From Dictyostelium discoideum (Eukaryota), in the NCBI GenBank assembly GCA_000004695.1, contig CM000152.2, positions 4,160,001-4,224,000 of the forward strand: DNA of 64,000 bases, written 5' to 3'. The notes under the pieces were generated by a model. The model was not told the origin of the DNA, ran no database searches, and saw only the letters and a list, made by a program, of their open reading frames with translations. Position numbers and translations under genes: made by a program. Shown here piece by piece: positions 37,901 to 39,620 of the stretch (position 1 is its first letter; each line of letters starts with the position of its first letter).

Positions 37901-39620
37901 TATTAAACATTCAATACCACATATTATTGAACCTTCATTATTTTGATTTTCCATTGACTTAAAATTCTTTATACCACTTTCACTAGTAACTTCAACTCTT
38001 AAAATAAATTTTGAACCACCTATTTTGATAATTTCAATTCTATTTAATTTTAATTCAAATTTCGCTACAAAAAAATAAATATTAGAATAAAATAATTTAT
38101 TTAATAAAAAAGAAAATAATAATAATATAAACTTACGAATTTCTGAATAAAAAGTAAATTTACTTTCTATTTCAAGTCGGGAGAAAAAAAAGGATGGGTT
38201 AATAATTGAAGATGATAAATTAAATTGTGTGTTGTTACCATAAAGAAATCCATATGGAGAATTCATTATCTTTTTATAATTATTTTGTCTTCCCTGTAAA
38301 CCGTATTCTATAGATTTGAAATTATAGGGACCATCAACTTGAAAATTATGAGTATATATTTTATTATCTTGTTCAGAGTTAAAAGGTATATCATCAAAAA
38401 CATTATTTAATCGTTGTGTGTCTATAGAATTTGAAAAGTTAGACATAATAATAAAACCAAAAAATAGGTATTATTTTAATTATTAAATTACTTGCCATTA
38501 TAGGAATAAAAATTATTATTTCTAGCAAAACCAGTTTCATTTTGATAATAAATGACAAAAGAACGATCTCCAGTATCTGGTAAATGGTATAGATATGTTG
38601 TTGAATCATTTGTCCCATAAATTGGATATAATGCATTCGGGGATGTAAAACCTTCAATTTCAATTTCATAAACACTTTGCATTGGAAGATAAATGGATTT
38701 AAAAGAGAAGGAACTTCCCAAATTTAAACCACCTAAAGGGACACCTACAAGATTTGAAGGATAGGTTACAAAATCTGTTATATTATCTGATTTAGCTGAA
38801 AATAATAAATCATATTAATATTATTGATTTTTAATTAAAGTAATTATTGTTTATATATATATATATATTTATTAATTGTTGTACAAACATTTAAACAAGT
38901 GATCTGAAATTGTGTATGGAAAATATTCATCACTATTTTTATATTGAATTTCAATTTCCAAAGGAGCTGTTAAATTTTCTGTATAGGGAAAGTTTTTGAG
39001 TTTCAATCTAAAATATTTTGATCCAATTGAGATTTGTTTCAAAGAACAACTAAGATAAGAACAGTATGGATTATTAATGATGTCAGATTTTTCTGAATTT
39101 TCATCCAAACCATCTAATCTTAAAATACCTTCATATTCAGAAGCGATAGAAGTTCTATAAATTCCATTTACCAAAGTTACATTAATTTTATTAACATCAA
39201 ATTCTATTTTATTTTATAAAAATAATGATATTTGATATTAATAAAAATAAAATTTTATGAAAACAATAAAATTAAATTATCCTATTTACCTAAACATTTA
39301 TATGGAATTTGAAATACAGTTTCAGCTTCATCAGTTATATTAATAGTACCTGAACCTTGATAAATAGTATTGATTTCCTCTATTAAACAATAACTATTTT
39401 TATTTCCAACTTCTTGGCATTCTATTGAAAATGGAGCGCTTGCTGTTAAATTTTGAGTACCCTCGTCACTATAATCACTAACATGTAAATATATTAGAAA
39501 TCGACAACCATAATTACTAGCATATATAGTAGTTCCTATAACATTTAATAATGAAATTGAATAGCTAGATGCATTTCCAAATAAAAATATTAATAAAAAA
39601 AGTAATTTTATTAAATACAT
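34901..39620 (-). CDS. Paralog A: large type I surface glycoprotein (~1362 aa) with signal peptide, EGF-like Cys-rich module and a single C-terminal TM; 7 exons: complement(join(34901..37113,37208..37543,37756..38064,38137..38421,38496..38795,38889..39203,39290..39620))
   Basis: A signal peptide exon (MYLIKLLFLLIFLFGNASSYS) and then six phase-1 introns (all exons are 3n+1 compatible) lead into a 2.2 kb last exon (ORF 34901..37111). That exon carries an EGF-like motif (CKNNCGGPNKGKCVTTGCFCISPYIGLDCS), a TM helix (LAGIIIGAVGFAAVIGISV) and a KK-rich tail. Its intron/exon structure and phases are shared with paralog B. The architecture is reminiscent of Dictyostelium Tgr-type or other adhesion glycoproteins, but the family assignment is unverified. 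Confidence 0.65.
35121..35722. repeat. ~600-bp near-identical tract shared with 40176..40777 inside otherwise diverged paralogs (gene-conversion tract)
   Basis: The nucleotide identity is essentially complete over this span (for example the runs beginning gagaaatctggatcaat and attatctaaaattgaatttgaaattgaaac). The flanking coding sequence of the same exons is only ~75-80% identical. Confidence 0.7.
37570..37735. repeat. (AAT/TTA)n microsatellite ~165 bp lying inside an intron of paralog A
   Basis: The TCAG|GTGAGT donor at 37756 and the acceptor at 37544-37545 place this tract in the intron. ORF 37544..38446 reads through it only as an artefact. Confidence 0.7.

Follow-up and report, generated by a model that had tools for sequence, protein, structure and literature searches.

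U2-type introns with GC-AG termini make up about 0.5-1% of the introns in most eukaryotes; their donors follow the consensus AG|GCAAGT and they are spliced by the major spliceosome. A related situation is known from human disease-associated +2T>C variants, where a minority keep some normal splicing when the site is otherwise strong. Switches between lineages have also been described: the donors of the human genes BLVRB and AZI2 start with GC in mammals, but with GT in chicken and fish, and GC-AG introns are reported to tend towards alternative 5' splice sites (PMC7242645). In a survey based on cDNAs and ESTs, 3 of the 3309 introns (0.09%) in Dictyostelium discoideum were of the GC-AG type, and 10 of 4522 in D. 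purpureum (PMC3033335, Additional file 1).

Here we analyse a candidate intron of this type in a stretch of 64,000 nucleotides of D. discoideum DNA with a G+C content of 21%, referred to in its whole length as the window. The intron belongs to a gene (gene A) that is the tandem neighbour directly downstream of DDB_G0281207 (gene B), both on the minus strand, and according to tblastn these two are the only members of their family in the window. Each has six introns, every one of them in phase 1 and at matching positions. The gene A locus was also studied in three other D. discoideum assemblies (L001, L002 and L003), where it was located via the products of the gene B cluster. The features are listed in Table 1.

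Table 1. Coordinates of the two tandem genes, of intron 3 and of competing splice signals, given as positions in the window.
Feature	Position	Strand	Remarks
Gene A, predicted ComC-family type I membrane protein, 1362 aa	34901..39620	-	model from sequence; orthologous intact ORFs in L001, L002 and L003
Gene A exons	39620-39290, 39203-38889, 38795-38496, 38421-38137, 38064-37756, 37543-37208, 37113-34901	-	
Gene B, DDB_G0281207 (XP_640885.1), 1390 aa	39950..44779	-	7-exon model gives exactly the deposited AX4 protein
Gene B exons	44779-44404, 44217-43900, 43830-43492, 43406-43113, 43002-42667, 42570-42238, 42126-39950	-	
Intron 3 of gene A, 74 nt, GC...AG, phase 1	38422..38495	-	sequence read; excision restores the ORF
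Donor GCAAGT after exon bases ATG	38490..38495	-	6/9 match to CAG|GTAAGT
Branch-site-like motif TCTAAC	38438..38443	-	presumed branch A 17 nt upstream of the acceptor G
Acceptor AG, TTCTATAG|AC	38422..38423	-	sole AG downstream of the donor region in the interval
Cryptic in-phase GT donor CTG|GTTTTG	38526..38531	-	with the same acceptor: 110-nt intron, 1350-aa product, 12 aa fewer
Out-of-phase GT, CAA|GTAATT, 4 nt downstream of the GC	38486..38491	-	7/9 consensus; frameshift, stop after 322 aa with the only AG
Intron 3 of gene B, 85 nt, CTG|GTAAGT...AATAG, phase 1	43407..43491	-	homologous in position to the GC-AG intron
3' tract of gene A, 91.6% identical to gene B	34990..35946 (gene B 40045-41004)	-	about 0.96 kb; dS 0.16

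Gene A matches four Pfam families, all above the curated cut-offs: DUF7035 (residues 627-766), DUF7034 (776-901), DUF7949 (1025-1056) and ComC_SSD, the ComC supersandwich (1089-1292). The order of the domains is the same in DDB_G0281207. Since both genes carry these four, we assign them to the ComC family, and their products are predicted to be EGF-like type I membrane proteins. The gene A protein, as read from the sequence, further has a hydrophobic N-terminus and a C-terminal GIIIGAVGFAAVIGISV segment, and the architecture looked for, i.e. the four-domain order together with a signal peptide and a C-terminal transmembrane segment, was found complete. In both genes the domains are confined to the large last exon (exon 7 in gene A), away from the junction of exons 3 and 4. 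A literature search on neighbouring DDB_G identifiers returned nothing useful.

Exon 3 of gene A runs to TCCTATAATG (...TATAATG), ending at 38496, and is followed by GCAAGTAATT (GCAAGT, 38495-38490). The initial annotation had proposed that the 74 nt from 38495 to 38422 are a GC-AG intron whose removal restores the frame, and the sequence is as described: with this interval removed there is an uninterrupted ORF of 1362 aa with no other defect. It is also correct that unspliced reading stops immediately, as the codons at the exon end run GGC AAG TAA, with the stop at 38490-38488 after 317 aa. The predicted junction peptide had to be changed, however: the junction codon is G|AC (Asp), the peptide reads ...FYSYN-D-TQRLNNVFDD, and the additional G in FYSYNG|DTQRL was wrong. 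Between 38495 and 38400 there are only two AGs, one within the donor (38492) and one at 38423. The G+C content of the interval is 17.6%, against 25-30% in the flanking exons. Downstream of it 1046 codons are open in sequence of 21% G+C, and likewise in the three other assemblies, an open frame that we take to be more than chance.

At the sequence level the interval qualifies in every respect as a U2-type GC-AG intron. It starts with GC and ends with AG (38495-38494 and 38423-38422); the rest of the donor agrees with the consensus (AAGT at +3 to +6, and G at -1 in the window and in L002); a branch-site motif and an A+T- or pyrimidine-rich tail lie shortly upstream of the AG; and removal restores a conserved frame at a position homologous to the GT-AG introns of its relatives. 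In length, A+T richness and branch site it is like other introns of this genome. There are also differences from such introns elsewhere: the D. discoideum genome is extremely A+T-rich, with GC-AG introns about ten-fold rarer, and two strains have T at -1 so that compensation on the exon side is absent there. A U12-type intron was considered and rejected: the non-canonical 5' dinucleotide would be common to both, but the donor is GCAAGTAA instead of RTATCCTT, there is no TCCTTAAC branch site, and Dictyostelium is reported to be among the lineages without U12 splicing (PMC2846911).

The GC is found in all four D. discoideum assemblies, the window included. L002 is 99.9% identical to the window and has the same ATG|GCAAGT. 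L001 and L003 have ATT|GCAAGT; they differ from the window by about 4-5% in the exons and by about 10% substitutions in intron 3, which is 76 nt long in both. The six bases GCAAGT are identical in L001, L002 and L003. At an intron divergence of about 10% this conservation is not significant by itself, and the T at -1 in L001 and L003 weakens the donor further, which counts against use of the GC. As a base in the genome, the GC is real and fixed across the four assemblies.

A full-length protein search found orthologs of gene A in D. citrinum (71% identity) and D. dimigraforme (61%). Both loci are syntenic, with a 298-aa gene, a phosphodiesterase and Gaa1 as neighbours. When the deposited D. 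citrinum protein is threaded onto its DNA, six phase-1 introns are obtained at the same positions; the third is 73 nt long and has the donor ATG|GTAAGT. In D. dimigraforme the donor of intron 3 is GTG|GTAGGT. The nine donor bases of D. discoideum and D. citrinum are thus the same except for C versus T at +2. In an alignment of five sequences from three species TCTAAC is invariant, at a distance of 17-25 nt before the acceptor, in an intron that otherwise shows little conservation; this looks like the pattern of a retained branch site. Since D. citrinum and D. dimigraforme have GT and all D. discoideum sequences have GC, GT is the state we reconstruct as ancestral, the change from T to C at +2 falling on the D. 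discoideum lineage before the sampled haplotypes split and being fixed thereafter.

We looked at selection on gene A by comparing the haplotypes. When the exon boundaries are transferred to L001 and L003, the ORFs prove intact, with 1381 and 1379 aa. The indels between haplotypes in exons measure 45, 12, 3, 3 and 3 nt, all multiples of 3; those in introns include lengths of 1, 2, 4 and 5 nt. Accumulated frameshifts in gene A, which had been named, along with absent expression, as a finding that would speak against a working intron, are present in none of L001, L002 and L003. As intron 3 has 74 nt in one form and 76 nt in the other, only exact excision keeps the frame in both.

For the whole of gene A, the dN/dS ratio (Nei-Gojobori) of the window against L001 or L003 is 0.28-0.32. 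It is lowest in exon 3, at 0.10-0.18, so that purifying selection is strongest there; synonymous changes are in excess (p = 4e-4 and 1e-2). Exons 4-7, leaving aside the 3' tract in which genes A and B agree, give 0.33-0.40 (p = 8e-7 and 9e-5). For exons 4-6 alone it is 0.59-0.66, which is not significantly below 1 and counts against the reading as a working GC-AG intron. Against the D. citrinum ortholog the ratio is 0.43, so the constraint within the species is no weaker. Taken together the ratios indicate purifying selection on both sides of the GC intron, and since all compared haplotypes carry the GC, this selection acted on GC-bearing genes.

From these observations we consider it probable that a working ComC-family gene of D. 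discoideum has, at 38495-38422, a true U2-type GC-AG intron, derived from a GT-AG intron by one fixed T-to-C change at +2. That the GC is the main productive donor is likewise a likely reading; the cut at the GC, and its efficiency, we infer from the sequence. In this scheme the ancestral donor would have been ATG|GTAAGT, still present in D. citrinum, and a single transition on the D. discoideum lineage would have gone to fixation. The change may have been tolerated since the remaining donor bases (G at -1, AAGT at +3 to +6) can still pair extensively with the U1 and U6 snRNAs. With the branch site TCTAAC and the acceptor unchanged, the major spliceosome would still cut at G|GC and join exon 3 to exon 4 in phase 1, giving ...FYSYN-D-TQRL.... 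The core of the original proposal, a functional GC-AG intron that arose by one T-to-C change, is in this way supported by the fixed GC, the selected frame and the nine bases of D. citrinum; its framing in terms of young paralogs is not.

The situation is comparable to that of BLVRB and AZI2, with GT in the outgroups (D. citrinum and D. dimigraforme), GC in one lineage and a gene under selection. The evolutionary distance is much shorter here (dS about 0.37), however, and as the nine bases are otherwise identical the substitution is isolated. As in the human +2T>C variants, T has given way to C at +2 while the donor is strong in other respects, and a GT close by, at +5, could compete with it; in contrast to them the change is no deleterious allele, but fixed and evidently tolerated in nature. 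Gene A intron 3 is an ordinary example of a well-known rare type of intron, uncommon for this genome but no surprise to a specialist, and it does not challenge current understanding. What it offers is a tidy case, well polarised by the donors ATG|GCAAGT (D. discoideum) and ATG|GTAAGT (D. citrinum), in which a change from T to C at +2 has become fixed in nature. The genome concerned has no minor spliceosome, and about 0.1% of its introns start with GC. The two donors could form a minigene pair for gauging how well the Dictyostelium spliceosome handles a GC donor. The value is otherwise mostly practical, as gene finders that accept only GT will mis-model or drop gene A.

Selection on the frame would be satisfied equally well by the in-phase GT at 38531, and this counts against use of the GC. 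It had been claimed that there is no usable GT in phase. Taken literally this does not hold, as two such GTs with an open ORF lie upstream, the one at 38531 and another at 38564 (ATC|GTTCTT, 23 aa fewer); both, however, fit the donor consensus badly. The site at 38564 has 3 of 9 consensus matches, and that at 38531 has 4 of 9, with none among +3 to +6. We find it unlikely that the GC is unused and that the GT 36 nt upstream is used in its place, or that both serve as alternative 5' splice sites, although the ORF would be preserved, GGTTTTG is kept in all D. discoideum haplotypes, gene A already has a weak GTTTGT donor in intron 2, and a propensity for alternative 5' splice sites has been reported for introns of the GC-AG type (PMC7242645). 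Besides the poor consensus match, the 12 codons at the end of exon 3 that would be lost speak against it. They are open in every D. discoideum haplotype and can be aligned with coding sequence of gene B (GFARNNNFYS versus GIAFDFNYLS) and of the D. citrinum ortholog, where the canonical donor of intron 3 sits downstream of the aligned codons.

Gene models deposited for the other strains bear on the same point. The products deposited for the orthologs of gene A are 16-60 residues off the six-intron model that conservation supports, and we reconstructed these models with the product length as the only guide, searching inside the deposited range of each gene. For L003, no combination of up to 7 introns of 25-260 nt that all start with GT leads to the 1417-aa product. 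When introns of 20-400 nt are allowed, 5 of the 6 solutions use the GC-AG intron and the sixth needs an intron of 22 nt. For L001 and L002 the reconstruction is ambiguous, with hundreds of solutions each. We favour the GC as donor because it lies at the ancestral splice position, has AAGT on the intron side and retains the 12 conserved codons, and because of the L003 product length and the existence of documented GC-AG introns.

The initial annotation saw a pseudogene as the only alternative. This was too narrow, since the cryptic upstream GTs, skipping of exon 3 and the out-of-frame GT 4 nt downstream are formally possible too. If gene A were a pseudogene, or becoming one, the intron would be retained, with the stop after 317 aa, or the GT at 38491 would be used, with the stop after 322 aa. 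In favour of this, a T-to-C change at +2 usually weakens a donor, read-through stops at once, and CAA|GTAATT matches the consensus better than the GC donor does and could compete unproductively. Further, no protein model of gene A is found in the protein collection, unlike the AX4 protein of gene B. An exact look-up of seven candidate products of gene A (among them the GC-AG model, those using GT38531, skipping exon 3 or combining GT38491 with an acceptor at 38289, and the 1422-aa and 1417-aa strain models) found none on record, while the gene B product was found. A protein database search with exons 2-5 of gene A gave no matches; the proteins encoded in the window are seemingly absent from or hidden in the similarity index, which did not return even gene B in a full-length search. 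The spliced junction had no matches in JGI metagenome contigs, as expected. Decay is nevertheless quite improbable: the three haplotypes have no stops and no frameshifts, about 3.1 kb of ORF downstream of the intron are intact in diverged GC-bearing copies, and the indels respect the frame. The intact frame and the dN/dS ratios, outside the converted tract as well, argue strongly against a pseudogene.

Skipping of exon 3, by joining the intron 2 donor to the intron 3 acceptor, would make the GC donor unnecessary. The exon has 300 nt and is flanked by phase-1 introns on both sides, and exons 2-6 all have lengths that are multiples of 3, so the frame would be kept and a protein of 1262 aa produced. 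The low dN/dS of exon 3 argues against this, and exon 3 is also the best conserved N-terminal exon between genes A and B, with 42 of 99 residues identical; we regard skipping as very improbable. An error in sequencing or assembly as the source of the GC, or a mutation private to a laboratory strain, has nothing but the rarity of GC donors in D. discoideum in its favour and is refuted by the same GC in three independent assemblies, two of them well diverged.

With the GC as the main donor, some use of the GT at 38531 (productive) or at 38491 (unproductive) beside it would fit a reported feature of GC-AG introns, their leaning towards alternative 5' splice sites (PMC7242645). A further, doubtful possibility is that the donor is leaky, so that D. 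discoideum, unlike D. citrinum, would make a mixture of forms: splicing at the GC would yield the full-length membrane-anchored protein, retention of the intron or splicing at the GT at 38491 would yield secreted proteins cut short at 317-322 aa, and the GT at 38531 would possibly give a protein lacking 12 aa. If true, this would amount to lineage-specific post-transcriptional control of dosage, or to a new soluble isoform of a cell-surface ComC-family protein.

Next, we consider the paralogs. Gene B does have GTAAGT from 43491 at the same position and phase as the GC donor, as the initial annotation reported; its exon 3 ends at 43492, in phase 1. The two genes had been called young, however, and a dS of about 0.8 contradicts this. 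Over exons 1-6 they share 38% of amino acids and 57% of nucleotides (dS about 0.83), and outside the 3' tract the dS is 0.74-0.83 and the identity 57-66%. The D. citrinum gene is far closer to gene A (dS 0.37) than to gene B (0.75-0.96). Around the splice site genes A and B cannot be aligned at the DNA level. We read them as old, saturated paralogs (dS 0.8-0.96), and the likeness of their 3' tracts is probably due to gene conversion between the tandem copies. Since only this stretch of about 0.96 kb is alike, the pair does not form the clean natural experiment that it had been taken for. The informative comparison of donors is that between the D. discoideum and D. citrinum orthologs, not that between A and B.

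Within the fetched flanks of the D. citrinum and D. dimigraforme loci only the ortholog of gene A is found, and no counterpart of DDB_G0281207. As the split of A and B (dS about 0.8) looks older than the split of the species (dS about 0.37), this implies that gene B was lost or relocated in these two species. The deposited D. dimigraforme model (L005, 8001-13274) needs 10 introns, one of them of 37 nt, and omits most of exon 4. The homologous exon 4 has an apparent frameshift, which would be either an assembly error or gene decay.

Some further variation was seen in gene A itself. The weak donor of intron 2 (AAT|GTTTGT, 38883-38888, minus strand) is kept in all D. discoideum haplotypes, in D. 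citrinum and in D. dimigraforme. In L001 only, an AG has arisen within intron 3 by a T-to-G change. Paired with the GT that lies 4 nt downstream of the GC, it would permit an in-frame GT-AG intron of 49 nt (L001 18119-18167) that adds 9 residues, and would thereby allow a strain-specific alternative to the GC-AG intron. Exon 5 (window 38064-37756, minus strand; L001 18554-18907) has a 45-nt in-frame indel that separates the AX4-like form from L001 and L003, where the segment KNFKAMEYQ...KAMENQ is present as a tandem duplicate.

Intron 5 (window 37544-37755, minus strand) is nearly all an (AAT)n microsatellite. Its length is 212 nt in the window, 158 nt in L001 (18908-19065) and 147 nt in L003 (17027-17173). 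The calls deposited for L002 and L003 (1422 and 1417 aa) fit a reading of this repeat as poly-Asn together with a mini-intron of 32-33 nt, which is probably an over-prediction.

Finally, ARAGORN reported no tRNAs over the whole window, 34528-34623 included. At that position, on the plus strand and about 280 nt downstream of the stop codon of gene A, Rfam predicts an intron-containing tRNA gene of 96 nt (RF00005, 49.1 bits, E = 4e-9).
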